From Coleofasciculus sp. B1-GNL1-01 (GTDB lineage Bacteria > Cyanobacteriota > Cyanobacteriia > Cyanobacteriales > Coleofasciculaceae): a DNA stretch of 64,000 bases. The stretch's first letter is position 1; each line of letters begins with the position of its first letter. Location of the stretch: NCBI GenBank assembly GCA_040220235.1, contig JAVJTO010000055.1, one strand, 5' to 3'. The position numbers were made by a program, and so were the translations under genes. Under the pieces are notes generated by a model. It was not told where the DNA came from, searched no databases, and was given only the letters and a program-made list of their open reading frames with translations. This document shows positions 2,784-21,634 of the stretch, in pieces.

Positions 2784-3032
2784 TTAGGATTCTGCTGAAT
2801 TATTGCTGAGTTAATTTTTCTCACAGGACACCCTAATTCGCTTATTATCCGATACCCAGCGTCAGTCTATCAACAACTTCCTGAAACGGGCAATGCCACG
2901 GTTGCTATATTAAGGTTGTTAATCTTCAAGGAAATGTGAGACTATCCGTCAAGACCATGGCTATAGAATCGGGAAAAATGTACCAGTGCTTGCCTTGCTT
3001 CCCCTGCTCTCTAACCCCACCCCAACACTGAT

Positions 3033-4187
3033 TCAGCAGCCCCTATCTACAACCCAATCTACCTGATGGGCTTCAGTTAGATCTGGAACCTCTACGCGAT
3101 CGCGCATCCGTTGCATCACTGTTTCCGGCACTTTGGCAGCGCGAGAACGATTGCGCCGCAGCAATTCTTCCCAAGCGGCTTCCAGGTAAACAATGCGAAT
3201 TCGTGCATGGTAGGCAGAAAATAGATTAATTAAGGACGAACGCAGTTGGCGAGAGAGATTGGTCGCATTCCAAACAAAGGATTTTTCGGCTCTCATGTAG
3301 TCTTTCGCGATCGCTCTTGCTCGCTCCGCTACAGCAGTTTGGTCATCTTTGGGAGAAATCTTCATCGCTTGTCGCAGTTCATCCAGGGAGATTACTGTCC
3401 AATCGGGAAGGTTCTCCTGAATCCAAGAGTCTTTGCCAGCACCCGGTAATCCTGACATCAGGACAACCTCGAAGCGAGTGTCATCAAAAGCAGCATAGTT
3501 GGGATCGCGATCGTCTTTTTGGAAATAGACAAATCGACTATGATCTGAGGGGAATGGTTTTGGATAAAATAAGCAATTATTCTCTTGACAATATTCTCGA
3601 AAGAACTGAACACGCTCCAGCAGTTCTAGCGGATCGTCACACACGCGACCCCGAATATCCGCTTCTGCCAAAAGTGCCAGCAGGTCGCAGCGAATCACTT
3701 GACTGGCTTTAATTACGGCACGTTGCGGGTTGGGTTTGTCCCAAAACCAGAGAGGAAGACTACCATGCTGCACCAGGGAGACAATCGCCTCCCGTTGATG
3801 AAAGGGTACGTTGAGTGACCAGAGGATTTGCCGCGCCATTTTTGCCCCTTGGCGGACATGACCCTTGGAGGTGATCCTGCCATCGGCTTCAATTTCAGTA
3901 GCCGCAGGTTTTGCCACATCATGGAGTAAGGCAGCCGCAAATAGAAGCGATCGCTCAATAGGTGGTAACTCCTGCCAAGCGGGTAATGCAATTAATGCCT
4001 CACAAACCAAGCGGGTATGGGTGAGAACATCCCCTTCTGCATGGTAACGGGGGTCTTGGGGACAATCCTGAAGGGATTGAAGCCAGTCAAACTCAGCCTG
4101 AAGCGATGCCCAATCTAGCGTCCAGTCTGGAGGCGTGGGACACCAGGGAAATGACCAGCATAAGGATTGAGAAATAGAAGAAGTCAT
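3033..4187 (-). CDS. HD-domain phosphoesterase fused to P-loop polynucleotide kinase (HD-Pnk, end-healing enzyme)
   Basis: HAEGDVLTHT, ALLHDVAK, GH, HG and EAD HD motifs; GLPGAGKD Walker A, SLDELR, WNATNL, LLRRNRSR. Confidence 0.88.
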   Translation of the reverse strand: MTSSISQSLCWSFPWCPTPPDWTLDWASLQAEFDWLQSLQDCPQDPRYHAEGDVLTHTRLVCEALIALPAWQELPPIERSLLFAAALLHDVAKPAATEIEADGRITSKGHVRQGAKMARQILWSLNVPFHQREAIVSLVQHGSLPLWFWDKPNPQRAVIKASQVIRCDLLALLAEADIRGRVCDDPLELLERVQFFREYCQENNCLFYPKPFPSDHSRFVYFQKDDRDPNYAAFDDTRFEVVLMSGLPGAGKDSWIQENLPDWTVISLDELRQAMKISPKDDQTAVAERARAIAKDYMRAEKSFVWNATNLSRQLRSSLINLFSAYHARIRIVYLEAAWEELLRRNRSRAAKVPETVMQRMRDRVEVPDLTEAHQVDWVVDRGC

Positions 4188-4230
4188 ATAACACTACATC
4201 GTAAGGTGAATGTCGCTGACTTAAGCTGGG

Positions 4231-4281
4231 TTTGTAGTAGGCACTTTAGTGCCAGAAGCGCTCGCATCGCTTACTACAAAC
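4231..4281. repeat. REP-doublet-like repeat, also at about 23768-23819
   Basis: tttgtagtaggcac..gtgccagaagcgct..gc.tactac shared between both sites. Confidence 0.55.
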
Positions 4282-4411
4282 TTTAAATCAGTGGCATCTT
4301 TAGCTGGAAACCCAATCACAGCTTACTGTTTAAGTAGAGGGCAACCTCTTTCATGGCAGTGATTAGCTCAAGAATCTCCCGTCATAGTCGTAGACTTGAC
4401 GGCGAGAGTTG

Positions 4412-5194
4412 TCAAAACTGAAACAAATCGACGCCGGGACGTAGGAGATTGGGGACGATAGGGCGGTTGAGCCAATGGCTATCCGATTGCAGGATGGTGG
4501 TTGAAAAGCTAGGACGGACGTATTTGTAACGAGCCGTTACAGCCGCTCCCTCTTCAACTTTGATATATAACCCTTCCATCAGGGGACTGGGGTCAGTTTG
4601 TTTGAGACTTCGCTCCACATCCAATCCCCGTTCCTCACAGGCTTGACGGAAGCGTTCTAAATGTCCTGACTCAATGAAATTCGAGTGACCCAGCAATCCC
4701 ATTAGCTGCTTGTAGGATGTTAATACACCGGAAAACAGGACGGGTACGGAAACCAGGGGTAATCCGGCGAGTAACTCCTGGCGACGTTGGGTACTGAGAA
4801 ACTGCTGCTGTTCAACATCTAGCACATCAAATTCTAAGAAATAATGGGGTAAGGCGTCGTAAAAGACGGTGTGTTTGGCATAGAGCCATTCGCCATAGAG
4901 GATGTAGCGATCGCCCAGAACCTGCCAAAACGTTCCAGTATGACTGTACGCCCATTGTTTGAACAAGTTAAAGTGTTTTTCTCGCTCTCCTCCAGTTAAA
5001 TAATGTCCCCGGCTTTGCAACAGCATTTGCCCATCAGGAGTAAAACTGATGGCAGCATTGGCTCCATCTACTTTTTCTTCGACTACCACATATTGAGAGG
5101 CGATCGCGCTGAAAGGCACGTTATCCAAGTCTTCATCCCCCGGTTGGAGCCGTGAACCTTGGATATGAGGGGTGCGAGGGAATTTGTACATCAA
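4412..5194 (-). CDS. ATP-dependent RNA ligase (Rnl2-like nucleotidyltransferase)
   Basis: KFPRTPH, motif I EEKVDGAN, III LYGEWL, IIIa FLEFDV, IV MEGLYIK, V RYKYVR. Confidence 0.88.
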   Translation of the reverse strand: MMYKFPRTPHIQGSRLQPGDEDLDNVPFSAIASQYVVVEEKVDGANAAISFTPDGQMLLQSRGHYLTGGEREKHFNLFKQWAYSHTGTFWQVLGDRYILYGEWLYAKHTVFYDALPHYFLEFDVLDVEQQQFLSTQRRQELLAGLPLVSVPVLFSGVLTSYKQLMGLLGHSNFIESGHLERFRQACEERGLDVERSLKQTDPSPLMEGLYIKVEEGAAVTARYKYVRPSFSTTILQSDSHWLNRPIVPNLLRPGVDLFQF

Positions 5195-5296
5195 ATAACA
5201 GAAGCGTGAACTACTTCAGGTTTAGCGTAGCGGAACCGAGAGCTTCTGGCTTCACGAGGGAATGTTTCAAGACGGACTTATACCCAACTTTTGATA

Positions 5297-5923
5297 TTAC
5301 CTACCAGCCTTCAACACCTGTTCAGCCGTTAGTTTTAAATCTGGGAAGGTTGGAGAGACAATAGTCTGATTGCCCCGAAACTGCTGAATTTCATACTCCC
5401 CATCCACTAACCTACAGACAGAGAGAGTGGGTTGTTTAGGTTTTCCAATATGTCGAGTACCACCTAATCCTGCATAGTCTGCTATCCAATATTCGCAAAT
5501 GCCCAAAACTGCGTAGTCTTCGACCTTACGGGCATAATCATTTTGCCAGTTGCTACTAACTACTTCTGCCACAAATTTAATCGAACTGCCTAGCGTTAGG
5601 ATTGATTGCTCAGACCAAAGCGGTTCTTTGACGAGTTCATCTCGATCAACAACTGCAACGTCAGGTCGAAATGCTGTCATACCAACGTTAGAAGGGCGCA
5701 ATAGTCCCCGCTGAAAGACAAACCAAGGTAAGCCTATTGCGTCAATCTGGACACAGATATTTGCGCTAATGAAGGCTACAATTTCTTCATGTAAACCTGT
5801 TGGTTCCAAATCGAACACCTCTCCGTCGATCAGTTCGTAGCGGTTATCGCTACCATGACGAGCGAGAAACTCGTCAAAGCTAAGTGGCTTCTGTTGAATT
5901 GCCGGATCGACTGCAATGGTCAT
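5297..5923 (-). CDS. Uma2-family (DUF820) putative endonuclease
   Basis: RYELIDG, RPDVAVV, AEVVSSNWQNDYARKVEDYAVLGICEYWIAD. Confidence 0.9.
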   Translation of the reverse strand: MTIAVDPAIQQKPLSFDEFLARHGSDNRYELIDGEVFDLEPTGLHEEIVAFISANICVQIDAIGLPWFVFQRGLLRPSNVGMTAFRPDVAVVDRDELVKEPLWSEQSILTLGSSIKFVAEVVSSNWQNDYARKVEDYAVLGICEYWIADYAGLGGTRHIGKPKQPTLSVCRLVDGEYEIQQFRGNQTIVSPTFPDLKLTAEQVLKAGR

Positions 5924-5974
5924 AGGTCAACTGAGTCCAATTAATGCCTTAAGTCTACCAAATCGAGTATGTGA

Positions 5975-6079
5975 TATAGCAACCGCCATGGCGGTTAGGA
6001 CACATCATTTATGTAGAGACGTTGCATTTTAGTCTCTACAATGGTGCCGAAAGTCCTAATCGATGTGTCTACTGCTATA
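5975..6079. mobile_element. MITE/REPIN-like element with tatagca...tgctata ends and internal gtagagac hairpin
   Basis: terminal inverted 7-mers plus tgtagagac...gtctctaca internal palindrome. Confidence 0.5.
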
Positions 6080-6325
6080 CATAGGACGAATCAAACCTCT
6101 GATTGCTTTGCCCCAGAATATTGACAAACTTTCGACTAGAAACCAACCAAAAATTCAGTCATCTAAGGTTCCGGTTGAGCGGAGACTAACCAACTTGAAC
6201 GATAGACGAAGAGACTTTTTCTAAGAAATAATCGGGAAAGGAGTCGTACAAGACGGCGTGTTTGCTGTATGGTATGGCGGTAGTTAGATAGTTGTTTGCC
6301 CTGAGATCGCAGTTCTATGAGTTGA

Positions 6326-6360
6326 GCGATGGTCGCTACGCGAACCGCCTTCGGCATCGC
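6326..6360. repeat. HIP1 site split by a 27-nt structured insertion
   Basis: gcgat[ggtcgctacgcgaaccgccttcggcat]cgc. Confidence 0.5.
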
Positions 6361-6407
6361 CAACGCTATCCTCGTATTATCTCCTATGAATCTATAAGCC
6401 TGGAAAA

Positions 6408-6761
6408 ATGCAATTAGAAGATTATTTTGATTTCCTCAGTCCTGATGACATTCGGATAAAAGGCACAAGAATAGGGATTGAAACTGTTTTATATGATTTC
6501 ATCCATCGGTGTCGCACCCCAGAGGAAATTGCCCAGAGTTATCGAACCCTAGATTTAGAACAAGTCTACGCTACGATTCTATACTATCTGCACAACAAAG
6601 AAGCAGTCAGTACCTACCTTGCTAATTGGATTGAGCATGGTCGCAGGATGCGAGAGGAACAAAAATACAATCCTCCACCTGTTTCTGAAAAACTGCGGAA
6701 ACTGAGAGCAGAAAGAGAAGCAATGAGGAAAGCAAGTGGCACTGAAGTATCTTTTAGATGA
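6408..6761 (+). CDS. DUF433-family antitoxin
   Basis: IRIKGTRIGIETVL...TPEEIAQSYRTLDLEQVYATILYY. Confidence 0.9.
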   Translation: MQLEDYFDFLSPDDIRIKGTRIGIETVLYDFIHRCRTPEEIAQSYRTLDLEQVYATILYYLHNKEAVSTYLANWIEHGRRMREEQKYNPPPVSEKLRKLRAEREAMRKASGTEVSFR

Positions 6762-7199
6762 GAACGTCGATCGAGTTTATCAAACTCAACTTTTGCGGCA
6801 ATATCCTGAATTAATTGTTCTTATGGTAGGAGAGCCTGGTAAGCTGTCATGCATTTAAATTGGGTATTAGTAGCGAGCAAGATGCTCGCACTACAAGGAT
6901 TTCATGATTATTGATATTAAGGTTTAAATGCCGAACAGCTTAATCCTCCCAAAAGCACGCCAGATCCTGAAATTTTATGCTGGTGTGAAGCCAATGGGTT
7001 TGTTTTGGTGACTAATAATCGTGCTTCTATGCCTGTACATTTAGCCGATCATCTTGCTCAAAATCGCCACATACCTGGTATTTTTATTCTCAATCCCGAT
7101 CTAGGCATTGGTGGAAATCTCGAAGAATTAATTTTAGCTGCTCTTGCTTCCGAAGACCATGAGTATCAGGATCGGATTATTTATTTACCTCTGCCATAG
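6736..7199 (+). pseudogene. DUF5615 PIN-like toxin disrupted by a 99-bp MITE
   Basis: GTG start gives LKYLLDENVDRVYQTQLL...VGEPG; removing 6842-6940 plus one TA restores the frame NPPKSTPDPEILCWCEANGFVLVTNNRASMPVHL. Confidence 0.85.
6842..6940. mobile_element. 99-bp MITE (agctgt...acagct ends, TA target duplication)
   Basis: TA on both sides; related copies at 39232-39330 and about 21635-21877. Confidence 0.85.
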
Positions 7200-7303
7200 A
7201 GGATGTAGCGATCGCCCAGCACCTGCCGAAACGTTCCAGTATGACTGTACGCCCATTGTTTGAACAAGTTAAAGTCTTTTTCTCGCTCTCCTCCAGTTAA
7301 ATA
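7193..7303 (-). repeat. 111-bp internal fragment of the RNA ligase gene (direct copy of 4892-5002)
   Basis: 108/111 identity by manual alignment; contains a HIP1 site. Confidence 0.9.
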
Positions 7304-7518
7304 TGTCCGTTGCGAATTCGTTCCTTAGCTGCTTCCCATGAACTACCTGAGCCAGGATTCTGCAAATAGGAAGCCTTTCTCTTTGCCAGCTCTTCTTTTT
7401 GCCAATCAAGCACAGGAATTTGCTCTGGAATTTGGGCAATGCTGTCCCATAAATCTTCCAGCAGTTGTAGTTTTTCCGAGAGGGTTAACTCAAACATTTG
7501 AGTGAACTCTGTGTTCAT
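7297..7518 (-). CDS. Addiction-module antitoxin-like protein (TIGR02574 type), no toxin partner
   Basis: LTLSEKLQLLEDLWDSI...WQKEELAKRK..Y...PGSGSSWEAAKERI; ATG at 7518. Confidence 0.8.
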   Translation of the reverse strand: MNTEFTQMFELTLSEKLQLLEDLWDSIAQIPEQIPVLDWQKEELAKRKASYLQNPGSGSSWEAAKERIRNGHI

Positions 7519-7717
7519 GCTGACCTCACCATCGCAATCGGTGTCTTGCTTCAAGTTTATCACCGATAACGATATTGCTTCCTCCTCAACGGCGGATGTG
7601 CTTGAGGCGGCAAAATGTGCAGGTCAAGAACTGGCTCGATGGTTAGAGCAATCTAGAAAAGTTGGGTTGAGTCTGTCAAGTCCTTGCTTGTGAATCAGTC
7701 GGTAACGTGAAATCCAA

Positions 7718-7817
7718 CATGGCTCGATTAAGCGATCGCACTCTTGTTTGAGGTGGAGAAGCAGTGATGAGTGTCAGGTTTCATCCCGCAACCCAACCGA
7801 CAAGATCGGGCGATCGC
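7718..7817. repeat. Inter-cassette repeat R1 (two HIP1 sites plus REP-like core)
   Basis: 94/100 identical to 11216-11315. Confidence 0.9.
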
Positions 7818-7843
7818 TCACCCAGGATCTTTTCTGAGGCAAT

Positions 7844-8482
7844 TCATGAATTGTCCCTACACCCAGATGTTATTGCCTCTAATTCCAGTTCGCATTGCCT
7901 AAACACATAATTTAGTGCTGCAAAAAGTTGTTCGAGATTATATATCGTATAAGCTGCAAAATTCTTGGTAAAACGATTGTTTTGGAGTTTGCCAAACTGC
8001 CAAAGCTGACCATTCGATACGATTCCGTATATCGTCTGCTGTTCAGATTGGTCATTCATCTTCTGAATCGCCACCATTTCAGCTAAACATTGACCCCATC
8101 CTTTAGTAAAATCATCCCGTTTAGCTTCAACAGCGACAAAAAACGGCTGCTCAAATATTTCTTTTCCTAGAGGCGATCGCTTGGCTATGATATAGTCAGG
8201 TACACCGGATAATTTTTCATTATAAATTAGTGACTTGTGGCTCCACAAAGTAAACTTATCTCGATAAAGCCGATAAAGCTCTTTGAGGACTGGAAAAATA
8301 ATCGTTTCACAAATCGCATATTCTGACTCCTCAAAGGTTAATTCTTTCAGGCAAAATTCTAAATCTTCTCTAAATGATTCTCGAATATCAATTTTGCTTT
8401 CGATAATATAGTTTGTTTCTGAGGAAGTAATCTCATACTCTTTGAGGACTTCCCCAAGATTTTTGTAGGATTCAAAAGACAC
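7844..8482 (-). CDS. Cyanobacterial PD-(D/E)XK restriction-endonuclease-like protein
   Basis: LSGVPDYII, VAVEAKRDDFTKGWGQCLAEM, IYGIVSNGQLWQFGKL. Confidence 0.75.
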   Translation of the reverse strand: MSFESYKNLGEVLKEYEITSSETNYIIESKIDIRESFREDLEFCLKELTFEESEYAICETIIFPVLKELYRLYRDKFTLWSHKSLIYNEKLSGVPDYIIAKRSPLGKEIFEQPFFVAVEAKRDDFTKGWGQCLAEMVAIQKMNDQSEQQTIYGIVSNGQLWQFGKLQNNRFTKNFAAYTIYNLEQLFAALNYVFRQCELELEAITSGCRDNS

Positions 8483-8546
8483 AATAACAGATTACCTTTT
8501 TGACTTTAATTTGGTATTAAGTAGATGGACAAAATTCAAGTATCCT

Positions 8547-8618
8547 TGTCGGGTTTCATCCTTCAACCCAACCGAAAAAATCGGGCGATCGCATATTGAG
8601 TGCATGGGCATTGTTCAA
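8547..8618. repeat. Inter-cassette repeat R2
   Basis: 66/72 identical to 11270-11341; includes HIP1 and the XisI stop codon. Confidence 0.9.
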
Positions 8619-8950
8619 GCAGCACCATAGTCTGTGTACTGCCGTTTGTAAGGAGGCTGTAAACCCAACACAATATCTTCTCTCTTGACACCCATTCCAA
8701 CCAAATCCTCAGCAGGATTCTGGTCTGTCAGATTCTGCTGAAGCCAAATTTTTCCGTCTTTGATATCAAAATGGACAATACAACGATAAACTCGGTTAAG
8801 CTGTTGCCATCCCACATTCATCCATTGGTAATGATCCCGCTCCGTGTCCAAGATAAGTTGCACTTCGACCTCATCATCCGAAACATCATCCTTGGCGTAC
8901 TGGCTCAGTAATGTCTGAATGTACTCCCGATATTGAGCTACCTTGTCCAT
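8615..8950 (-). CDS. xisI: XisI-family protein
   Basis: DTERDHYQWMNVGW...HFDIKDGKIWLQQNLTD...DIVLG..PPYKRQYTDY. Confidence 0.9.
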   Translation of the reverse strand: MDKVAQYREYIQTLLSQYAKDDVSDDEVEVQLILDTERDHYQWMNVGWQQLNRVYRCIVHFDIKDGKIWLQQNLTDQNPAEDLVGMGVKREDIVLGLQPPYKRQYTDYGAA

Positions 8951-9075
8951 TGCACTATCACCTCATTAACTGGATCATACACAATTATCAAGACCTGATA
9001 CCGTTGCAGGTGCAGTTTGAGTAAATTCGTATTGAAAAACGTTTGGTAAACATCAACTGGAACTGCCAAGTATAG
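8938..9075 (-). pseudogene. xisH: XisH 3' remnant
   Basis: manual translation LYLAVPVDVYQTFF...IIVYDPVNEVIVQWTR* overlapping the xisI start; N-terminal two-thirds missing. Confidence 0.8.
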
Positions 9076-9105
9076 GCTGATTCATAACCATTTAAAGAGT
9101 TGTTT

Positions 9106-9735
9106 TCAAGATTGAAGCCAACTTCGCAAGATATTAATTACCACTGGAGTAAAAGGTTCCATCTGACTCTGTTGGGGTTGTGATAGCTCATCGATTAACA
9201 TCTCTAAAAGTTCTTCATCCTCTAAGCCTTCATCGGGGTCTATACCATTTGTCCATAATAAAGCATTAGACAATTGCTTGCGTTTTTCGATCAAGGCACG
9301 GTTATGTTTTTCGTGATCTCCCAAGTTTAAGACTCGGATCGTATCGGTTGCCCGCTCGCTTAACCCTTCTACCCGACCACTAATTTTAAAGCGAAGTTCT
9401 GTTTCACATTCTATCATCAGAGGAGTTAGGGGTAGGGGTTGAGATTTATGAGCATCACCGCATTGATTAGAGGTATTACAACTGGCGACAATATTTGAAA
9501 AGTCAACTGTGCGTCTAGGATTCAATTTTTGAGCTTCTATATGCTCATTGTGGCAAGCATCAATATCTTGGATGCGCTGGCAACAATAGGCACAAAGGTA
9601 GAATTGTTCTGATAGAGCATATTGCCGAATAGTTCGGCGAATCTCTTCGGTTAACTGGTTGTAGCGTCCGTGAGGGTTTGCTCGTTTCCAAACTGTTAAG
9701 CTGGAGGGTTCAGTCCCTTTACTAATGGTTCGCAT
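9106..9735 (-). CDS. HNH endonuclease, PtuB/TIGR02646-like
   Basis: EQFYLCAYCC, HNEHIEAQ, FSNIVASC...CGDAHK, TIRVLNL; overlaps the ATPase stop by 14 bp. Confidence 0.85.
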   Translation of the reverse strand: MRTISKGTEPSSLTVWKRANPHGRYNQLTEEIRRTIRQYALSEQFYLCAYCCQRIQDIDACHNEHIEAQKLNPRRTVDFSNIVASCNTSNQCGDAHKSQPLPLTPLMIECETELRFKISGRVEGLSERATDTIRVLNLGDHEKHNRALIEKRKQLSNALLWTNGIDPDEGLEDEELLEMLIDELSQPQQSQMEPFTPVVINILRSWLQS

Positions 9736-11092
9736 GACGCAATTCTTGTTTACGGATCAGCAATTTTGCTTTGACCAATTCCAGATGATTTGCGGGTAGT
9801 TCCTCAGTTAATTTGGCGAGTCGTTGTTGAGCCTCGGTTAGCTTTGAATCTTGTATGGCATCCAGCAGATCGTTCAGTTCAGCATCAATTTTCTGATTAC
9901 GGATGCTGGTATCCATAACATCTAATAAGACCGTATTAGCATCTTGCCCATACTGAGAGGGCAATTGTCGCAATTCACCATTGGTTAAGGTGTAAACCAA
10001 AACATTTTTACAGTCACTGATCACCAGAGGTGAATGGGTAGTCAGCACAAACTGACAATTTGGGAACGTTGCGATTAGGCGATCGCACAGGCTGCGTTGC
10101 CAAGAGGGATGCAGGTGCAAATCGACTTCATCAATCAAGACGATACCATCTCCTGCTAGAGGATTCTCCAAAGCAGGGTTCAGCATGGCTAAACGGCGAG
10201 CAATATCACCAACCAGAGCCATGAGAGATTTTTCGCCTTGTGAAAGTTGGGCGACATTCAGGGTTTCACCGTTTTTATCAATCGCCATGTAGAGACGGGG
10301 TTTACGACGGACTCTCAGGTTGTCCATCTGGGGCATAAATCGGCGAATGGCGGTGCGAACTGCGGTTAATTGCCGATCTTTGGCTGAGGCATTGAGTTCG
10401 TTTAACCGTTGCCATGCGTCTGGATTGGTTTCCAATAGTGGTTTCAGTTGGTTGAGAACATCTTCAGGCATTGCTGATTCATTTTCGGTATCTTCCCGTT
10501 CCCGAAACCACTCAAAAAAGCGGCGAAAGTCAACCCCCTGACTTAAAGAGTTATCGTAACCATCGAGTTGCAAGAAGGTATGCTTTGTCCTAATTTTTAG
10601 GGGAATATCAAGTACAACGCGCTCGACAGGGTAAAACGCAATGATGGGCAGGCTAGTTTTGTGATCACGGGTAAGGGCATCACGGTAACGATTGGCTAAG
10701 CGAGTGCAGTCGTTGAGATGGCTAGTGTACCGGGCTTTACGTCCTGTTCTATTTTTGGCTAAAGTCCACTTGAAGTGATGCTGGATCTCGTTTTGATTCG
10801 GATTGTCTGATGTTCCAGAAGCATCACAAATTTCTATTTCAATACTGGCGGCGTTGGCGGTGTTAAGTATGGCATCTTCCGGGATAGGGTTACCACTACC
10901 CTTTTCTGTACGTAAACGAGCAGTAAACCAACTCAGGGAAATAGCTAAGGCTTTCAATACAGAGGTTTTACCCGCGCCGTTATTACCCACAAAGACAGTG
11001 ATGTTGCTGGGATTTTGCTCGGTGGGTGCTAAAGGAATTTCCAGGTTTTCAAATAGCCCAATGTTATTTAAGATAACCCGTTGGATTTCCAT
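9722..11092 (-). CDS. ABC/AAA ATPase, PtuA-like (Septu / retron-Ec78 effector type)
   Basis: GNNGAGKT, FFEWFRERED, QLSQGEKSLMALVGDIARRL, LIDEVDLHLHPSWQ, LTTHSP. Confidence 0.85.
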   Translation of the reverse strand: MEIQRVILNNIGLFENLEIPLAPTEQNPSNITVFVGNNGAGKTSVLKALAISLSWFTARLRTEKGSGNPIPEDAILNTANAASIEIEICDASGTSDNPNQNEIQHHFKWTLAKNRTGRKARYTSHLNDCTRLANRYRDALTRDHKTSLPIIAFYPVERVVLDIPLKIRTKHTFLQLDGYDNSLSQGVDFRRFFEWFREREDTENESAMPEDVLNQLKPLLETNPDAWQRLNELNASAKDRQLTAVRTAIRRFMPQMDNLRVRRKPRLYMAIDKNGETLNVAQLSQGEKSLMALVGDIARRLAMLNPALENPLAGDGIVLIDEVDLHLHPSWQRSLCDRLIATFPNCQFVLTTHSPLVISDCKNVLVYTLTNGELRQLPSQYGQDANTVLLDVMDTSIRNQKIDAELNDLLDAIQDSKLTEAQQRLAKLTEELPANHLELVKAKLLIRKQELRHANH

Positions 11093-11215
11093 AGCGGTAA
11101 CGTTCAAACCTCTGAGGTTTTCGACATTGACAACAGTACCTCAAACGGTACTTGAAGGCACTTACCCCTATTATGGTCTCAAAACAGTTGCACGTAGCCA
11201 GTTTCATCCCAGTCT

Positions 11216-11341
11216 CATGACTCGATTGAGTGATCGCACTCTTGTTTGAGGTGGAGAAGCAGTGATGAGTGTCAGGTTTCATCCTTCAACCCAACCGACA
11301 AGATCGCGCGATCGCATATTGGGTGCATGGGTATTGTTCAA
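11216..11341. repeat. Inter-cassette repeat R3 (contains both the R1 and R2 segments)
   Basis: manual alignment to 7718-7817 and 8547-8618. Confidence 0.9.
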
Positions 11342-11550
11342 CGGCGACGTGCCTTAAACCTGAGTGGGTCATCAGTACACTGCTCTTTTTGAAGCGCTCG
11401 TTTGGTTTTTATGCAAAAATACCGCTAGTTGTTGCAAAACTTTACAGGCTGGTGAGTGTGTAGCACGGACGTGAAACTCACTCGTGGCAAACAGTAAAAA
11501 GTTTGCCTTATCTAAGGGCGCTGTCAACGTAAGTAGTGTGTACAGGAGCA

Positions 11551-12408
11551 ATGGAATCAAACGTTTTAACCGCAATTTTTCTTCCCTTAGCCCTATTTAT
11601 CATTATGCTGGGTATGGGATTAGGGTTGACAGTTGATGATTTCAAGCGGGTACTGGTTGAACCATTAGCCGCAATTCTTGGACTCATTGCTCAGCTTATC
11701 ATGCTGCCCGCCGTAGGCTTTTTACTGGCTAGCCTTTTCCCGCTTTCTCCAGAATTGGCGGTTGGCGTAATGGTTTTAGCGGCTTGCCCTGGCGGACCCA
11801 CATCCAACCTGGTAACCTACTTAGTACAGGGTAACGTTGCCCTATCGATTACGCTGACGGCAATTAGCAGCGTGATTACAGTATTTACGATTCCTTTGGT
11901 CGTTAACCTAGCGATGCAGCGTTTTCTGGGGGAGGCTACTATCCTAGAGCTACCCTTCTTGACGACGGTCATTCAAATTGCTGTCATTACCCTGATTCCA
12001 GTGATATTAGGCATGGTAATTCACCACTACGCTCCTCGTTTTGCGGCTTATGTGGAAAAGTGGGTCAAGTGGCTCTCTCTATTCTTTTTAGCCCTAATTA
12101 TCGTGGGTTTGTTGGCAGCAGAACGCGCTAATGTTGCCAGCTTCTTCTTGAAAGTGGGCTGGGTTACCCTCGCTTTAAACATGAGTACAATGCTACTGGG
12201 GTTTGCACTCGCCACCTTGGCTAAGCTAGATATCCGCAGCGCCAAAGCCATTACGGTAGAAGTCGGTATTCAAAACGGTACTTTAGCCATTACCATTGCC
12301 AGCGCACCAACTCTTTTGAACACGCCAAGCATGGCTATTCCAGCCGCCATCTATAGCTTAATCATGTTCGCAACAAGTGCCGTCTTTGCTGGGTTAGCGC
12401 GACGTTGA
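11551..12408 (+). CDS. Bile acid:sodium symporter (BASS) family transporter
   Basis: IMLGMGLGL, ACPGGPTSN, GNVALSITLT, EVGIQNGTLA; hydrophobic helices. Confidence 0.9.
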   Translation: MESNVLTAIFLPLALFIIMLGMGLGLTVDDFKRVLVEPLAAILGLIAQLIMLPAVGFLLASLFPLSPELAVGVMVLAACPGGPTSNLVTYLVQGNVALSITLTAISSVITVFTIPLVVNLAMQRFLGEATILELPFLTTVIQIAVITLIPVILGMVIHHYAPRFAAYVEKWVKWLSLFFLALIIVGLLAAERANVASFFLKVGWVTLALNMSTMLLGFALATLAKLDIRSAKAITVEVGIQNGTLAITIASAPTLLNTPSMAIPAAIYSLIMFATSAVFAGLARR

Positions 12409-12410
12409 CA

Positions 12411-12468
12411 AGCAAGAGGAGGCGATTGAAATCGCTGCTACACAAACAAAGTCCGCCTGCGCGGACTG
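12411..12468. repeat. Dispersed REP-doublet-like repeat (also 42804-42862; related at about 19878 and 47203)
   Basis: agcaagaggaggcgattgaaatcgctgctacacaaac..gtccgcctgcgcggactg. Confidence 0.75.
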
Positions 12469-12560
12469 GGTAATAACGGGGGTAGCGTTCCCCGGATTTG
12501 GTATAAAGCGGCAACAAAGGAAGCCTACAACCGTACCCATAGGATCGGTGTAGGAGGACG

Positions 12561-13040
12561 TCACAGCTTCTTGAAGTATCTGGCAACTGGTAATAGCTCG
12601 AAACCTACCTTTTCATAGGTGTGACGGGCTGGGGCATGACCAGGATCGCCTCCAGTTTCAACCATAGCAATAGACATCCCAGCATCTTTCATCCAAGCCA
12701 GAGCAAATTCTATCAAAGCACTACCAATGCCGTGACCTTGAAAGTCTGGATCGACAGCAACCATGTAGATTTCACCCATGCTGTCCTCTGAGTGTAGTTT
12801 CACAGCTACAAAGCCCACAGTAGAATCGGCATCGATAGCAACCCATACATTCGTATCTTCCGCAGCACAGACATCCTCGACAGCTTTTTGCTGACTCACA
12901 CGCCAATGATTGGGATAGAATGCCTGGTACACATCAGCGTTCATCACGTTCTGAATCGAATCAAAGACCGGAGTCCATGCCCGAAGCGAAAGACGAATAA
13001 TAGCATCCAGGTGGCGAGGGTCGTATGGTTCAATTTGCAT
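12561..13040 (-). CDS. GNAT N-acetyltransferase
   Basis: MVAVDPDFQGHGIGSALI acetyl-CoA motif; ARHTYEKVGF. Confidence 0.9.
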   Translation of the reverse strand: MQIEPYDPRHLDAIIRLSLRAWTPVFDSIQNVMNADVYQAFYPNHWRVSQQKAVEDVCAAEDTNVWVAIDADSTVGFVAVKLHSEDSMGEIYMVAVDPDFQGHGIGSALIEFALAWMKDAGMSIAMVETGGDPGHAPARHTYEKVGFELLPVARYFKKL

Positions 13041-13289
13041 TCCCAGATGAACTCCAGTTAACTCTGCAAGCTTTATCGGTTATACTACAATATGCTACAA
13101 AATCGGATAGCTTGGCTTTGAATGTTTACCTAGCAGAAGCAACGGCTATTTCTTCCAAGGAAACTTGGTGCCCATCTCAGTTAGCGCCGAAAAGACGAGA
13201 TAAAGGATGAGTACACCAACGCTTAGGTTTAGGGGAAGCAATCAACTACAACCCATTACGTTAGGTATAACAAGAGGGAATATCAAACC

Positions 13290-13982
13290 GTGTCTATCTG
13301 GATTATTCGTCATGCTGAAAGTTGCTCTAATGCTGGGTCGCCAACCATCGGACCGCATGATAATGGCTTGAGTGAATTGGGCTACCGACAATCAAAATGT
13401 ATTCCAACCACCGTGAAACAGTCTCCAGACTTAATTGTGACTTCACCTTATCTGAGAACGCAACTCACGGCTCAGCCATTGATTGAACAATTTCCACATA
13501 CACCCATTGAGGTTTGGCAAATTCAGGAATTTACCTATCTAAGCCTACCGCTCGACCAACCAACCACACCTTTGATTCGCAAACCTCTGAGCAAAGCTTA
13601 TTGGGATCGCTGCGACCCTGAATATGTGGATGGAGCCAACGCTGAATCGTTGGTTCAACTGATGGAACGAGTCCGAAATGCTCTGAACCAGTTGCAACAA
13701 CAATCCGGTTTTGTGGTTGTCTTTTCACATGGATTCTTTATCAAAGCGATGCTGTGGCAGATTTTGGCTAACCCAACGGTAATTGATGCCGTTGCCATGC
13801 GTCGGCTTTTAGGATTTTCCCGAGGATTTCGAGTACCGAATGCATCAATTTTGCAGATGGAATTTGACTCAAGTGGGATACCTCACTGGAGTTCCTTCAT
13901 CACCAATCATCTGCCACCGGAGCTAGAATCGGCAACACCCGATGCAACAGTGGCGAGTGATGCAGGCGATCAACCTTCATGA
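13290..13982 (+). CDS. Histidine phosphatase family protein
   Basis: IIRHAES, LSELGYRQ, TSPYLRTQLT, QEF, FSHG. Confidence 0.85.
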   Translation: MSIWIIRHAESCSNAGSPTIGPHDNGLSELGYRQSKCIPTTVKQSPDLIVTSPYLRTQLTAQPLIEQFPHTPIEVWQIQEFTYLSLPLDQPTTPLIRKPLSKAYWDRCDPEYVDGANAESLVQLMERVRNALNQLQQQSGFVVVFSHGFFIKAMLWQILANPTVIDAVAMRRLLGFSRGFRVPNASILQMEFDSSGIPHWSSFITNHLPPELESATPDATVASDAGDQPS

Positions 13983-14055
13983 CCTATCTTTTAGGGGGGA
14001 AAGTAACCAAAGTGTTACCAAATGCCAAATAGATAACTTTGTCTAGAACAGTAGC

Positions 14056-14305
14056 TTGTAGTATATTGGTAGTACGACTCAACCCCTCATTGTTTCGTGA
14101 GCGATCGCTCAGACTTTGCCTCAGGCAAATCGTAGCACCGTTGCTTCCAGAGGGACAAGGCCGCATACATTACACCCCTTGGCGAAGGTATGTCAGAGCA
14201 AAGAGTCCAGAAGAAAAAAATGGCGACGATTCGTGAAGTCTACGATCGCATTCTCTGGGATGCACGTCTAGACCGCAGCGCCTTTGCGATCGGCTATATC
14301 GAGCG
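14056..14305 (+). pseudogene. 250-bp diverged duplicate of the upstream region and first ~39 codons of the MJ1316-PAP gene (copy of 15762-16011)
   Basis: about 233/250 identity; truncated ORF from ATG 14190, MSEQRVQKKKMATIREVYDRILWDARLDRSAFAIGYIER. Confidence 0.9.
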
Positions 14306-14310
14306 TATGT

Positions 14311-15690
14311 CTATTGAGCAAACTTATCCGTGGGTGTAATAACTATAGTTACTGATGACATTACTTCATAAGGTCTAGTGATTTCCTGGTAATTATCTTC
14401 ATGAAGTCTTATGTGTGTAATATCTGGAAATAATGCTGGTTCTATAGGATATAAAGCGTTTGGATTATGAAACATTACTATACTCTCTGACCATGTTTCT
14501 CGATATGATGGATGATCGATATCAATTGAGAAAGGAATTGGTTCAAATGCTTCTGGATCTGGATCGAAGAGCTTGCCAACTCTAATCATTTTGATAGCTT
14601 GACTACCAAGACCAGCAAGCTTTCCCATTCTATTGAACTTTGTAATAGTTGCACTATTGGTAAATAAAACTGCGCTGATGTTCTCGGTCTCTGGAAGTTT
14701 GAAAAAACCTGATGGGATTCTTTTTCCCTCATACTCATGAAAATCAATATCTTCTTTAACTATGCTGCTATTGCCGTTACTATCCTTTGTCAGTCTGATG
14801 CGTTTAGCATAGAGGTAGTCCGACAAAGCAGTTCTTGACCAAACCATTGATCCGGTCTGGTGATAATCATGTATCGCAATTACCAATGGCTTACCACGGA
14901 CATGTTCCTTTTCCCAATATTTCTTATTTAGCTTTGAGTAAAGAGGACTTCCAAACTTGATAGGCATATAATGCCTAAGCCGTTCGTCTAAATCTTCTTG
15001 ACTCGTTGGTTCTGGCAAGTCTTGTTTGTGTCTACTAGGATTGACGGTAACAGCCTCAATACAGATTATCTGATTAAATCGCTCTACAACATAATCAGGA
15101 GCGTTGAAAGAACGATCTATTTTAAAGCCCGACTCATGAAGATAAACATATAGAAAAATTTCCCAGAGTCTTGAATCAAAACCACTTGTTTGAAAGTCCC
15201 GAATAAAATTACCATCGGGATCAGTGAATGTATAAATAATCTCTTCAATTAGATTTCGAGCCGCCTCAAATCTAGGTTCTTCAACCAAGTAGCGGAAATA
15301 AGGATGTAGTTTTTCTGGTGCAACGATTTGTTTATAGATGTATTGAGGCGGACTATCCTCATCTCCTTGAGGATATTGTTCGTGCTCTTCCTGACTAAAC
15401 TCAGTTAACTTTTTTTCAAGCTCCTTGCGTGCATCTTCAATAGAATTAAAGCTAACTCCAGTGTAGATGCAACGGTAATTTTTGCGTGTGTCTCGACCAA
15501 AAATTACAAAATTCCAATCGTTATCAAACTTATCGATGAATATATTTGCAATAAGAATTTTTCGTTCGTCAGTGTACCACTCGACTTCCTTATTAATAGT
15601 AAAAGCCTCTGTTTCCGGCTTAATTCCTCTGACAAGCGGATCGCGAACATAGCACAGAGCATTAAAGTACTCTTGAGAGATAGGGTGCAT
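14311..15690 (-). CDS. AT-rich hypothetical protein with PD-(D/E)XK-like motif (family often auto-annotated 'glycosaminoglycan attachment protein')
   Basis: FQTSGFDSRLWEIFL, APDYVV...CIEAVTVN, KPLVIAIHD; 459-aa ORF. Confidence 0.6.
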   Translation of the reverse strand: MHPISQEYFNALCYVRDPLVRGIKPETEAFTINKEVEWYTDERKILIANIFIDKFDNDWNFVIFGRDTRKNYRCIYTGVSFNSIEDARKELEKKLTEFSQEEHEQYPQGDEDSPPQYIYKQIVAPEKLHPYFRYLVEEPRFEAARNLIEEIIYTFTDPDGNFIRDFQTSGFDSRLWEIFLYVYLHESGFKIDRSFNAPDYVVERFNQIICIEAVTVNPSRHKQDLPEPTSQEDLDERLRHYMPIKFGSPLYSKLNKKYWEKEHVRGKPLVIAIHDYHQTGSMVWSRTALSDYLYAKRIRLTKDSNGNSSIVKEDIDFHEYEGKRIPSGFFKLPETENISAVLFTNSATITKFNRMGKLAGLGSQAIKMIRVGKLFDPDPEAFEPIPFSIDIDHPSYRETWSESIVMFHNPNALYPIEPALFPDITHIRLHEDNYQEITRPYEVMSSVTIVITPTDKFAQ

Positions 15691-15895
15691 TGCAGAAACT
15701 CTAGAACCTTAAATTGCAATAAATTGGCTGACACTTAGCTTTTCGTGGCAACCAAATACTATTGTAGTATATTAGTAACACACCTGAACCCCTCATTGTT
15801 TCGTTAGCGATCGCTCAGACTTTGCCTCAGGCAAATCGTAGCACCGTTGCTTCCAGAGGGACAAGGCAGCATACATCACACCCCTTGGCGTAGCC

Positions 15896-18800
15896 ATGTC
15901 AGAGCAAAAAGTCCAGAAGAAAAAAATGGCGACGATTCGCGAGATCTACGATCGCATTCTCTGGGATGCACGTCTAGACCGCAGCGCCTTTGCCATCGGC
16001 TATATCGAGCGCAGGTCTGAAGAAGGTATCCGCGAAAAACCATTTACCTCTTGGTCAACCGATGGAGACATCCCATTGCATCGCATCCGCTATATACGCT
16101 GCGGGGAGGAAATCGTTTGGGATCGCGACCAGCACTTGGATCTGTTCTCGGCAGGACAACTGCCTGATGCTGCCTTTCTAGCGCATCCCCAAGAGGAGAC
16201 ACATTGGGCTACAGTCACACCTCCTGCACAAAGCCAACACCTACTATTCAAGCCACGATCGGCCTACCAGTACAGTTCACAAGGTTGGCAACCAACTGAC
16301 CAACCGTCAACAGAGACAACAATAGGTACGCTGACCATTGCCAGTTTTAACGTGCTGTGCGACAGCTACGAGCAGGAACGCATCCAGACAGCACAACGCC
16401 TGCCTGTGATTGTAGAACATCTGCGCCGATGCGATGCGGATATTATCGCGCTACAAGAAGCGACGCCACCCCTGCTAGACGTGTTGTTAAAACAGGATTG
16501 GGTACACTCTTACACCATTTCTGAATCACCCGAAGGACAAACTCTAAAGCCCTATGGTGTTTTGCTTCTATCGCGACTGCCGTTTACGCTGGTCGAGCAT
16601 CAGTATTCGGCGCACAAGCGGGTGCTGGTGGGAACCTGGCAGATTAACGGGCGATCGCTACATTTAGCCGTCGTGCATCTGACCAGCAATCGCGCCCGCA
16701 ATGCTCTTGAAGTCCGGGCAAATCAACGTTCTGTATTACTGGAGTATCTCAAGACGCTGCCAGGAGAGAGTTTCATTGTTGGAGATTTCAACAGCCGAGG
16801 GGATGAGCCAGAGGAGGAGTTGAGCCAAAGCGGTTTTGTCGATGTTTGGACGCTGCTGCATCCTGATGATCCAGGCTACACCTTTGACCCAGAACGTAAC
16901 CCGCTAGCCACATTGATGAGTTTGAACGGTGAGGCGGCGCGGTTTGATCGCATCTTACAGCGCAGTGAAGATGGGTGCTGGATGCCTCGTTCGATGGAGT
17001 TGTTTGCCTGCGAACCTGTAGCGGATACCCAAGGAACCCTTTACCCCTCCGATCATTTCGGCATCCGTGCCGTTTTGGATTACTCAACGCCCACAATAGC
17101 AGCGTTGCAGACAGTGCCGCCAGTCTATCGGAGTGCAGTTGTGGTGATTCCCTCGGCTGATGTGTTACCTGCGATTCAAGCAATTCGCCACCGATATGAT
17201 CGCAGGTTCCACCGTTGGATGCCGCACATCAATTTGCTGTATGGCTTTGTGCCAGAGGAGTATTTTGAAGAAGCAGCGCAAGCGATCGCACTTGCACTTG
17301 CCCAATGGCAACCCTTTGAGATAACGCTCACCAGCTTTGAGGCATTCAAGCACCGCTCTAGCTGTACGGCATGGTTGCGCCCCGTTGCCCAACCCCCAGA
17401 TGCACTCCATCAGTTGCAAGCCGTTCTCCAGCAGTTGTTCCTGCAGTGCGACGAGCAAAGCCAGAAGTCAGCAGCAGGGTTTACACCGCATCTGAGCGTC
17501 GGTCAGTTTCCCACTGCACAGGAAGCCAAAACCCAGCTTCCTTCCTGGCATCCAGTGAGTTTTCTCGTGAACTCCGTAGCCCTGATTAGCCGTCGCGGTG
17601 ATGAGCCGTTTGAGGTGCGATACAGGGTGCATTTAGGGCAAGAGAGCAAGGATTGTAGAGACGCGCCATGGCGCGTCTGGGAAGCTGGGGAAGAGACAAC
17701 TAACCTAATGCAGCGACTGAACCACCTCGAACCCGAGCTGAGTCAGGAGCAACGCCAGCATCGCGAAACCATTTTGGCATTAGTCGAGCAAGCTTGTGCC
17801 GAGTGTTTGGGTTTCCCGGTATCCCTGCATCGAGTAGGTTCGGCACGTTTGGGCGTGCAGAGTCCGCAAAGCGATTTAGATGTTCTTTGCCTGATTCCCG
17901 CGTATCTGTCTGGGGAGGCGTTTTTGGAAAGCGTGGGACAACGCTTGGAGGGATTATGCGATCGCGCCCAAGTCGTCTCATCTGCCAAGATACCTCTGTT
18001 AAGGATGGGATTTGAAGGCGTGTCTGTTGATCTCCTGTATGCCCGCTATCCTTCTGATCTAGGCACAGTTGAGCCGTTCACAGAGGCAGCACGACCCTTT
18101 TTTGATCCAGTGAGTTGGAAAGCACTGGTGGGTTGTTTGGAAGCTGATATCCTTACAGCTATAGTACGCCAGTCTGTACCGCTAGCGTCTTTCCGGCAGC
18201 TTTTGAGGGCAGTGCGGGCGTGGGCGAAGGCACGCCAGATTCACGGCAATGCTTGGGGGTTTCTGGGTAGCTTTTCCTGGGCATTGCTGGCGGCTTGGAG
18301 TTGCACTCGTTTTCCCGAAGCGGGTGCGGATACAGGGCTTGAGGCATTACTTGCTCATTTTTTCCAGGTACTCAACCAACAGGATTGGAGTCAGCCTGTA
18401 GCCTTGACCCCAGCAGGTAAACAATACCAGAAATTGCCCTATGACTGGCTACCTGTCATCACCTCCATTGAACCCTGTCAAAACAGCGCTCGTAATGTCA
18501 CGCGATCAACTGCCCAGATTTTGCGCCGCGAATTCGAGCGAGGGGCCGCTATTTCAGAGCAAGTGTTGGCTGGCAAAATAGGTTGGGACGCTCTTTTCGA
18601 GATAGCTGATTTACCGACGCAATCCGATTCGTTCTTGGTGCTGACGGCAACCTGTGACAACAACGATCGCTTGTCAGCTTGCTGCGGGTGGCTGGAAGGT
18701 CATGCGATCGGATTGGTCATCGCTCTGGAACAGCAACTCGATCTGTATGTTAGACCTTGGACTGGGATTCTGAAAGGGCAAAACAGGATTTGCGCGGTGT

Positions 18801-18961
18801 TAGGATTAAACTCTTCCCAAGACTTTGATGATGTTGCAATTGAGCAGGTTGGTCGAGATTTTGTTCTTCAGTTCAATGCTGATTCTAATGGCAGTATGTT
18901 GGAGTGTGTGGCGTGCGATCGCGTTACACTTGTCCAATATGTAAACCTGCCTGCCAAATAA
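15896..18961 (+). CDS. Multidomain RNA-repair protein: MJ1316 + EEP phosphodiesterase + 2H phosphoesterase + eukaryote-type poly(A) polymerase
   Basis: IYDRILWD...IPLHRIRY...VWDR (MJ1316); SFNVL, ALQE, VGDFN, RFDRI, PSDHFG (EEP); PHINL/PHLSV (2H); GSARLG...SDLDVLC, VDLLYA, VRAWAKARQIHGNAWGFLGSFSW, PVIT..PCQNSARNV (PAP). Confidence 0.85.
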   Translation: MSEQKVQKKKMATIREIYDRILWDARLDRSAFAIGYIERRSEEGIREKPFTSWSTDGDIPLHRIRYIRCGEEIVWDRDQHLDLFSAGQLPDAAFLAHPQEETHWATVTPPAQSQHLLFKPRSAYQYSSQGWQPTDQPSTETTIGTLTIASFNVLCDSYEQERIQTAQRLPVIVEHLRRCDADIIALQEATPPLLDVLLKQDWVHSYTISESPEGQTLKPYGVLLLSRLPFTLVEHQYSAHKRVLVGTWQINGRSLHLAVVHLTSNRARNALEVRANQRSVLLEYLKTLPGESFIVGDFNSRGDEPEEELSQSGFVDVWTLLHPDDPGYTFDPERNPLATLMSLNGEAARFDRILQRSEDGCWMPRSMELFACEPVADTQGTLYPSDHFGIRAVLDYSTPTIAALQTVPPVYRSAVVVIPSADVLPAIQAIRHRYDRRFHRWMPHINLLYGFVPEEYFEEAAQAIALALAQWQPFEITLTSFEAFKHRSSCTAWLRPVAQPPDALHQLQAVLQQLFLQCDEQSQKSAAGFTPHLSVGQFPTAQEAKTQLPSWHPVSFLVNSVALISRRGDEPFEVRYRVHLGQESKDCRDAPWRVWEAGEETTNLMQRLNHLEPELSQEQRQHRETILALVEQACAECLGFPVSLHRVGSARLGVQSPQSDLDVLCLIPAYLSGEAFLESVGQRLEGLCDRAQVVSSAKIPLLRMGFEGVSVDLLYARYPSDLGTVEPFTEAARPFFDPVSWKALVGCLEADILTAIVRQSVPLASFRQLLRAVRAWAKARQIHGNAWGFLGSFSWALLAAWSCTRFPEAGADTGLEALLAHFFQVLNQQDWSQPVALTPAGKQYQKLPYDWLPVITSIEPCQNSARNVTRSTAQILRREFERGAAISEQVLAGKIGWDALFEIADLPTQSDSFLVLTATCDNNDRLSACCGWLEGHAIGLVIALEQQLDLYVRPWTGILKGQNRICAVLGLNSSQDFDDVAIEQVGRDFVLQFNADSNGSMLECVACDRVTLVQYVNLPAK

Positions 18962-19635: not shown

Positions 19636-19950
19636 TATTTGACGGGCTGGTAGGGAGCTTTATGCCTTACCATCCCAACTAAAAAGAATAACAAAATATC
19701 GGCTTACTGTAAAGCTAAAATCAATTAATTTTTTATCTGAATTAACCTCTTAATAAATGGACAAGGCGGCACTTGTTTCTGTCTCGTGATAAGTCTCTAC
19801 AAAAGTACCGTTCACCCAGTCAACACAGCGCTTTGCATCTAATACCAAATCCGGGTTAGCCACCCCCCTTATAAGCTAGTCCGCGCAGGCTGACTTTGTT
19901 TGTGTAGCTGCGACTTCTAGTCGCTAGGGCAAAAAAGGGGTTCCTTATGC

Positions 19951-21294: not shown

Positions 21295-21349
21295 GTTCTT
21301 GTATTCTCACCCAATAAATTATAGATGCTGACTTGAATCTACCGCGTTT

Positions 21350-21617
21350 GGGGAAGATGGGGGAGATGGGGGAGATGGGGGAGATGGGGAAGATGGGGGA
21401 GATGGGGGAGATGGGGGAGATGGGGGAGATGGGGGAGATGGGGAAGATGGGGGAGATGGGGAAGATGGGGGAGATGAGGGAGATGGGGAAGATGGGGGAG
21501 ATGGGGGAGATGGGGGAGATGGGGGAGATGGGGGAGATGGGGGAGATGGGGGAGATGGGGGAGATGAGGGAGATGGGGGAGATGAGGGAGATGGGGAAGA
21601 TGGGGGAGATGGGGGAG
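21350..21617 (+). repeat. Tandem 9-mer (GGGGAGATG)n, about 30 copies
   Basis: direct reading; variants GGGAAGATG and AGGGAGATG. Confidence 0.95.
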
Positions 21618-21634
21618 AAAAATTCAATCTTGAA

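Follow-up and report, generated by a model that had tools for sequence, protein, structure and literature searches.

How does an array of defence genes come to be assembled on a chromosome when no integrase is encoded beside it? The question is raised by a stretch of 64,000 nucleotides (nt), hereafter the window, from contig JAVJTO010000055.1 of Coleofasciculus sp. B1-GNL1-01 (genome G000, an 8.66-Mb draft of 172 contigs). Near the start of the window, genes for anti-phage and toxin-antitoxin proteins lie between three sets of direct repeats that carry the octamer HIP1 (highly iterated palindrome 1): copies of part of an RNA ligase gene, three copies (R1, R2 and R3) of a non-coding sequence R, and two copies of the start of an MJ1316-domain gene. 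The initial annotation explained this block as an integron-like array in which foreign genes travel with a stub of a resident gene and recombine back next to it, possibly assisted by HIP1. Our comparison with related genomes indicates, with moderate confidence, that it is a strain-variable anti-phage island in which the R repeats are pieces of an integrase-less docking module and the other two repeat sets, ligase and MJ1316, consist of gene stubs, and which was likely built by DNA uptake, homology at one end and a short-homology join, preferably at HIP1, at the other. We regard it as a decayed defence island of integron origin that was likely restitched by homology-anchored, HIP1-biased recombination.

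Sequence comparison within the window recovered all three repeat sets at the coordinates first given. The ligase copies (4892-5002 and 7193-7303) are 97% identical, R1 (7718-7817) and R3 (11216-11315) 94%, R2 (8547-8618) and R3 (11270-11341) 92%, R1 and R2 89%, and the MJ1316 copies (14056-14312 and 15762-16018) 93%; the copies are indeed diverged (89-97%) rather than exact. Two limits had to be corrected, as R1 reaches 7661 on its left and the MJ1316 stub 14318 on its right, and a fourth repeat (4832-4877 and 6219-6264, 89%) supplies the ligase stub's other half. Elsewhere in the 8.66-Mb genome no second full-length copy of any repeat was found, only matches of ~30-50 nt resembling repetitive extragenic palindromic (REP) sequences. 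HIP1, which occurs 7011 times in G000 (0.81 per kb), is present within the repeats (positions 4907, 7208, 7732, 7810, 8585, 11308, 14101 and 15807). It marks the junction exactly only in R, however; the ligase stub has it 15 nt from the edge and the MJ1316 repeat 46 nt from the edge, both on the inside, and in the latter repeat it is absent from the alleles of three relatives. The 16 open reading frames (ORFs) scanned in the block and its flanks encode no integrase or transposase, as first noted, whereas the description of the cargo as one- or two-gene units fails for two units with three genes each (Uma2, DUF433 and DUF5615; XisI, PtuB and PtuA).

Integron ancestry of the R repeats

R is the middle of a non-coding module of ~700 nt, here called module E, which occurs in at least six cyanobacterial families and consists, in this order, of attC, a 3' arm, a stretch in which four HIP1 sites accompany REP hairpins, a possible intI stump and attI. 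R1, R2 and R3 are eroded pieces of E, which is itself the 3' arm of an array followed by a HIP1/REP region in the place of intI and by attI. Positions 476-692 of E are homologous to the intI promoter/attI region of 2 out of 30 true cyanobacterial integron loci (70-72% identity; E-values 2e-20 and 1e-17), and E has an ATG at the position of the intI start, from which 3 of 9 copies read MSQPT...RLLE while most others are frameshifted. At its other end, E starts after attC at a crossover between the G and the TTAG of GTTAG; 44 such starts have 27 distinct upstream flanks and nearly all share this crossover. Different genomes carry different cassettes in E, and 79 of 106 neighbouring genes (not de-duplicated) are co-oriented. 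In 19 flanks preceding E, 79.5% of the cells of the attC R and L boxes pair, a value reached by none of 500 shuffles, 5 of 12 pairs show compensatory changes, and a model of these flanks matches 6 out of 15 intI-linked loci at an E-value below 1e-3. The attC model (model R1) is sequence-only, the RNAalifold consensus being without pairs, and has no match in the window or G000; a simple fold scan for RYYYAAC/GTTRRRY missed most attC sites. Core and inverse core are complementary at 7-8 of 8 positions in 6 of 11 attI-cassette-attC units, two of which hold the same cassette, and complete attC-E-cassette-attC units were found in G048 and G054.

In the window itself much of this has gone. Neither the window nor G000 as a whole contains an attI site, which is present in the full E of relatives, and a single half attC remains; G005 keeps the same half, and G003 has a full attC at the equivalent place (6162-6220 in the window). 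Near-complete attC sites are found in the orthologous islands of G002 and G006 (two each) and of G003, G004, G007, G018 and G024 (one each). The islands of G002 and G006 thus have the at least two attC sites without intI of a CALIN (attC sites in a cluster without integron-integrases), box and core pairing is seen in relatives only, and the tests applied place the window outside both complete integrons and CALINs. Beyond what the initial annotation foresaw, part of this array is integron-derived and not merely similar to an integron.

R was matched at an E-value of at most 1e-8 in 26 of 52 genomes of the family, two of these matches being confined to the ~48-nt REP arm, and in 14 of 401 genomes of the phylum set, four only over REP length; named records with the element include Coleofasciculus, Microcoleus, Myxacorys and Symplocastrum. 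Across six families E is 79-95% identical, compared with 74-80% for a resident gene (five genomes tested), which would point to horizontal spread, and it is likely that the module spread between genera by DNA uptake and recombination. No match to E was obtained among 72,556 plasmids, and its attI motif is absent from the viral collection.

With five candidates scored per genome, IntI passed the cut-off in 38 of the order's 401 genomes, but none of the 24 genomes carrying the left arm of E has a full intI; one of the 24 has a fragment. In G000 nothing exceeded the TIGR02249 cut-off; an N-terminal intI pseudogene fragment (G000:C119:48212-48457) with 47% identity to cyanobacterial IntI has no E adjoining. 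The only intI match over cut-off in the 52 family genomes (L106, G043:C790) lies on a GC-rich contig that looks like foreign, contaminating DNA, and was set aside; it has no similarity to E. Among metagenomic loci with the attI motif, intI stands beside 1 of 15 and beside none of the six of E type. Metagenomic attI motifs of a more distant type, with no intI in the flanks available, were also observed (L174, L175, L177, L179, L180, L182, L186 and L187); in L175 an attC lies about 800 nt before the attI.

Other readings were considered and dropped. IS1111-attC elements (PMC11187229) combine subterminal inverted repeats with a DEDD transposase partner. The ends of E do match each other in inverted orientation at 11 of 13 positions. 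A DEDD transposase was, however, not found among the neighbours scanned (97 proteins; 44 of 113 in a second set), and the reading of E as an IS1111-attC miniature inverted-repeat transposable element (MITE) or non-autonomous IS110-family element was abandoned after the attI homology of its end was recognized. A group II intron or known RNA was rejected, as no Rfam family matched the five R loci searched, and so was a CoiA-like nuclease as the acting enzyme, since no more than 3 of 52 family genomes have it. Its gene is itself cargo, a true integron cassette with 95-98% identity among three genera (L074:2757-3596, L072 and L086).

HIP1 at the junctions of module E

The clustered ends of E fragments (positions 100-450) lie within 2 nt of HIP1 in 40 of 124 cases, against 13.7% expected. 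For joins to foreign DNA this fraction is 37/91, again against 13.7% expected and thus about threefold the chance level, and in a control with the four sites shifted the count averaged 10 and reached at most 23 (enlarged set), whereas only 1 of 23 E-to-E joins is at HIP1. All four HIP1 sites of E gather junctions, 5' ends falling mostly where an octamer starts and 3' ends where one stops; an E circle opened at one same HIP1 on both ends was not seen. HIP1 also marks a junction of the nuclease gene that separates R1 from R2. In G004 one full R is joined directly to XisI without the PD-(D/E)xK gene, i.e., the empty site of the R1/R2 pair, and in G002, G004 and G006 this gene is missing from the place it has in the window and sits after the poly(A)-polymerase gene; in G002 the two meet with an overlap of exactly one HIP1. 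A palindromic insertion of ~24 nt was observed inside a HIP1 of the poly(A)-polymerase gene in G002:C47 (L024; window-equivalent position 17958) and near position 16365 in X10, resembling the SDR5 element mentioned in PMC4390886. The literature searched, most subscription papers aside, does not describe a cyanobacterial attI module that lacks intI and is cut at HIP1.

Gene stubs, stop codons and turnover of the cargo

The ligase and MJ1316 repeats fit the proposal that foreign genes travel with a stub of a resident gene, whereas R is no such stub but a relic of an integron platform. In G057, which belongs to another genus, an antitoxin-toxin pair is followed by a ligase 5' stub that runs without a break for 372 bp and adjoins the half attC and Uma2. 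Because the stub is unsplit there, 7193-7303 and 6219-6264 represent one stub that was later split by DUF433/DUF5615. The ParE-like toxin, still paired in G057, was removed by a deletion with 5-nt microhomology that also shortened the ligase stub. The native end of DUF5615, as in G024, has 7 nt in common with the ligase, with HIP1 at most 8 nt away in both parents. In the window this gene is interrupted by a MITE (6840-6942), and it is unbroken and MITE-free in G001, G006 and G024. The MJ1316 stub is 93.9% identical to G018 (another genus) and 91.3% to the intact copy in the window, which is 95.8% identical to the congener G003; the adjoining PD-T7-1 protein has its last ~6 residues replaced (TDKFAQ instead of TDKFEDFDFS in homologues). 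Joins between stub and cargo use 0-7 nt of microhomology. Homology on one side and short or no homology on the other, with an intermediate in G057, is the pattern of homology-facilitated illegitimate recombination (HFIR), and both repeats fit one-sided homologous capture.

Four stop codons of cargo genes do lie at repeat edges (7197-7199, 7297-7299, 8615-8617 and 14311-14313), but their proposed role as a capture signal was not borne out: genome-wide, a stop lies within 10 nt of the edge in 2 of 41 stub-type repeats, an automatic count that missed the DUF5615 case because the gene is split by the MITE. Two of the four are truncations rescued by a stop in the stub, one is native and lies inside the microhomology, and one stems from R3 as a remnant of the XisI-R junction. 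The coincidence is thus mostly truncation rescue.

The locus is present in 8 of 8 congeners and, as the initial annotation anticipated, its cargo varies at the repeats, cargo or order being unlike the window in all eight (orthologous islands were compared over 15 stretches from 12 genomes). To the cargo of the window, i.e., Uma2, DUF433/DUF5615, an orphan antitoxin, a PD-(D/E)xK nuclease, XisI, a Septu-like PtuAB pair and PD-T7-1 (Table 1), the equivalent slots of relatives add two types of CBASS (cyclic-oligonucleotide-based anti-phage signalling system), NACHT, SNF2-like genes and genes without assigned function. The CBASS loci are of the phospholipase and 4TM effector types (L025:14971-16522 and L032:4058-5994; G003 and G007). 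In G008 a 131-aa cargo ORF (L034:12266-12661) is in frame with the final ~25 codons of XisI, so that the stub supplies its end. Seven public sequencing runs were available as assembled contigs, in which uncovered stretches say nothing about absence; two mat metagenomes, X7 and X10, have another insert, of 3566 nt in X10, between an MJ1316 stub and position 15762, and in run X1 PD-T7-1 has a depth of about 5 against about 95 for the backbone. The backbone genes (HD-domain kinase, RNA ligase and MJ1316-EEP-2H-poly(A) polymerase) belong to an RNA-repair type.

Table 1. Coordinates of genes, stubs and repeats of the island in the window
Feature	Position	Strand	Remark
HD-domain/AAA_33 kinase, island backbone	3033..4187	-	Pfam HD + AAA_33; kept in relatives
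Intact RNA ligase (PF09414), source of ligase stub	4412..5191	-	
Uma2 putative endonuclease, cargo	5297..5923	-	PADLOC PDC-S03; partial copy in G057 (other genus), 96% DNA identity
3' half of integron attC, upstream of Uma2	6162..6220	-	nhmmer E-value 8.5e-4 (window); 0.12 genome-wide, sole match
Ligase stub, distal half	6219..6264	-	89% copy of 4832-4877; joined to half attC
DUF433 + DUF5615 toxin-antitoxin pair, within ligase stub	6408..7199	+	
Ligase stub, proximal half	7193..7303	-	97% copy of 4892-5002
Orphan addiction-module antitoxin, C-terminus truncated	7297..7518	-	Stop provided by ligase stub
R1, module E positions 199-355 (HIP1-bounded REP hairpin region)	7661..7817	-	
PD-(D/E)xK nuclease, cargo	7844..8482	-	
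R2, E 197-244 + XisI 3' flank	8547..8618	-	
XisI	8615..8950	-	HIP1 join to E seen in several genera
Septu-like PtuA ATPase + PtuB HNH pair	9106..11092	-	PADLOC PtuA1 E-value 5.8e-167, PtuB1 E-value 1.9e-97
R3, E 197-297 + remnant XisI 3' flank	11216..11341	-	
GNAT acetyltransferase	12561..13040	-	Directly precedes E fragments in other genera
MJ1316 promoter + 5' stub, foreign-like allele	14056..14318	+	
PD-T7-1 anti-phage gene	14311..15690	-	PADLOC E-value 7.7e-175; stop from antisense stub
Promoter + intact MJ1316-EEP-2H-poly(A) polymerase gene, backbone	15762..18961	+	

Three high-copy MITE-like repeats lie inside the block (5975-6079, 6840-6942 and 12411-12504), and others lie near 2912-3052, 4184-4297, 17632-17703 and 19832-19948; together they represent several dispersed families with 20-270 overlapping genome matches. 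Further on (21295-21873), adjoining tandem arrays of 9 and 21 nt follow an ABC substrate-binding gene and differ in length between congeners.

Assembly of the island and relation to known systems

The explanation we favour would begin with IntI, in another lineage or transiently present, loading cassettes into E. Pieces of E with a cassette may then move between filamentous cyanobacteria by natural transformation, where shared sequence of E or of a backbone gene would serve as RecA anchor and the other end would be closed by an illegitimate join at HIP1 or a short homology; repeated arrivals and deletions would leave the repeats. The genes comEC and dprA are present. As attI and the full attC have gone from G000, any further change in the array would have to come from recombination at the repeats.

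Several results weigh against this explanation. No transfer event was observed. The PD-T7-1 junction has neither HIP1 nor apparent microhomology. The bottom strand of attC folds clearly better than shuffles in just 3 of 12 cases, and RNAalifold yielded no consensus pairs. The search for the IntI family scored five candidates per genome. The junction clusters of E partly share ancestry, so that p-values overstate the HIP1 excess. Furthermore, when G000 was compared with 608 kb of G003, HIP1 was found at 1 of 82 unique breakpoints of colinear indels (about 3% expected), and at the ends of local low-copy repeats in G000 its excess over dispersed ones is two-fold (17/135 vs. 27/425, p 0.026). At repeat insertions in the G000/G003 comparison it was found in 0 of 66 cases. 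HIP1 is, therefore, enriched at the junctions of R but no general marker of gene-content breakpoints, and the bias is a property of module E and perhaps of duplicated DNA, not of all gene gain.

A more specific form of the explanation, which we advance only tentatively, holds that the HIP1-rich hairpin is the recombination handle of a mobile integrase-free attI module, whose cassettes, loaded by IntI elsewhere, are passed across families and stacked in defence islands by HIP1-directed crossovers. It is also possible, though we are rather doubtful, that HIP1 acts as passive microhomology, with ordinary slippage and illegitimate joins, no HIP1-specific machinery, and an island of decaying tandem and insertion debris. 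Four octamers within 210 nt of E, compared to one per 1.2 kb in the genome, would offer such homology, microhomologies of 5 and 7 nt unrelated to HIP1 serve at further junctions, many stubs in relatives are without HIP1, and general breakpoints show no excess. However, slippage should favour E-to-E deletions, precisely the class in which HIP1 is rare, and the use of all four sites, oriented by octamer start and end, is not accounted for.

E could alternatively be itself an ORF-less cassette of the delta-attI type (a mobile attI with a promoter), which an IntI acting in trans still places behind attC sites and reloads; integrase chemistry, not RecA, would then drive the diversity, the window being a dead end. 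The many distinct flanks at one crossover and the complete units described above favour this, as do the intI fragment on C119, the occurrence of IntI in the order, and the finding that IntI1 recombines delta-attI cassettes (PMC12901181). The lack of a full intI in E-bearing genomes and beside the E-type metagenomic loci, and a window with no attI and only half an attC, make it unlikely, and it leaves the ligase and MJ1316 stubs and the cuts at HIP1 unexplained; it is compatible with the explanation we favour as its loading step. Still less probable is a hairpin resembling a MITE or REPIN (REP doublet forming a hairpin), moved by a Y1 transposase like RAYT (REP-associated tyrosine transposase) or another nuclease in trans and dragging its neighbours, so that junctions are hairpin ends. 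R does have terminal inverted repeats of ~35 nt with GTAG-type arms ending in HIP1, which we take to be REP/REPIN-like, and G000 has 13 matches to Y1_Tnp. R is, however, not a dispersed element (each genome has 1-5 matches, which group in islands and in G000 are confined to one), no Y1 gene adjoins it, no such enzyme recurs among the 97 of 134 neighbouring proteins scanned, and junctions also fall at HIP1 sites other than the outer ends of the hairpin. That the repeats are artefacts of a draft assembly in 172 contigs is largely refuted and hardly credible, even though no contig in the seven public runs bridges the PD-T7-1 junctions: the copies are not exact, junctions recur in independent genomes (ligase/DUF5615 in G001, G002 and G006; XisI/R in several genera), and the PD-T7-1 pieces match run X1 with 0 differences.

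Among known systems, CALINs and degraded integrons (Cury et al., 2016; PMC4889954) likewise have cassettes bounded by attC with no integrase next to them, a cargo of defence and toxin-antitoxin genes and possible loading in trans. In E, unlike in CALINs, an attI arm, a post-array arm and a possible intI stump travel as one repeated module, which is fragmented at HIP1, and the window keeps only half an attC. The delta-attI cassettes of mobile integrons (PMC12901181) likewise have an attI-derived site downstream of attC inside the array, whereas E is geneless and chromosomal, in cyanobacterial genomes without IntI. The type VI secretion immunity arrays of Vibrio and the Rhs orphan arrays (PMC5361080) grow without an integrase by HFIR, with a homologous anchor, an illegitimate join and stubs between modules; the anchors here are 5' ends of RNA-repair genes and an integron relic instead of effector genes, the cargo consists of unrelated defence genes and the joins are HIP1-biased. 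By analogy, the mechanism may resemble the array building by HFIR of Vibrio (PMC5361080) acting on CALIN-like material (PMC4889954). HIP1-linked recombination has been described as crossovers at GCGATCGC in a competent HIP1-rich cyanobacterium, the reported cases being smtB excision, site-specific recombination in PCC 7002 and HIP1 raising transformation (PMC4390886; PMC13756078; 10.1101/2024.09.10.611283). The mechanism agrees with reports that homologous, methylated HIP1 increases integration (10.1101/2024.09.10.611283) and that HIP1 may serve site-specific recombination (PMC4390886). The function of HIP1 has been open for three decades (PMC13756078; PMC4390886). Unlike these laboratory or single-locus cases, many natural junctions of one mobile module were counted here, with a genome-wide negative control.

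Module E offers a natural substrate whose junctions can be counted by the dozen and for which a negative control exists, so that HIP1-directed joining becomes directly testable. Integrase-free islands can, moreover, conceal descent from an integron, which one genome alone does not reveal. Our results suggest a route by which integron defence cassettes reach integrase-free lineages and are reshuffled in them. If the HIP1-rich hairpin were indeed a recombination handle, HIP1 would have a natural role in gene acquisition, and filamentous cyanobacteria without integron integrases would share a mobile attI module that is free of an integrase.

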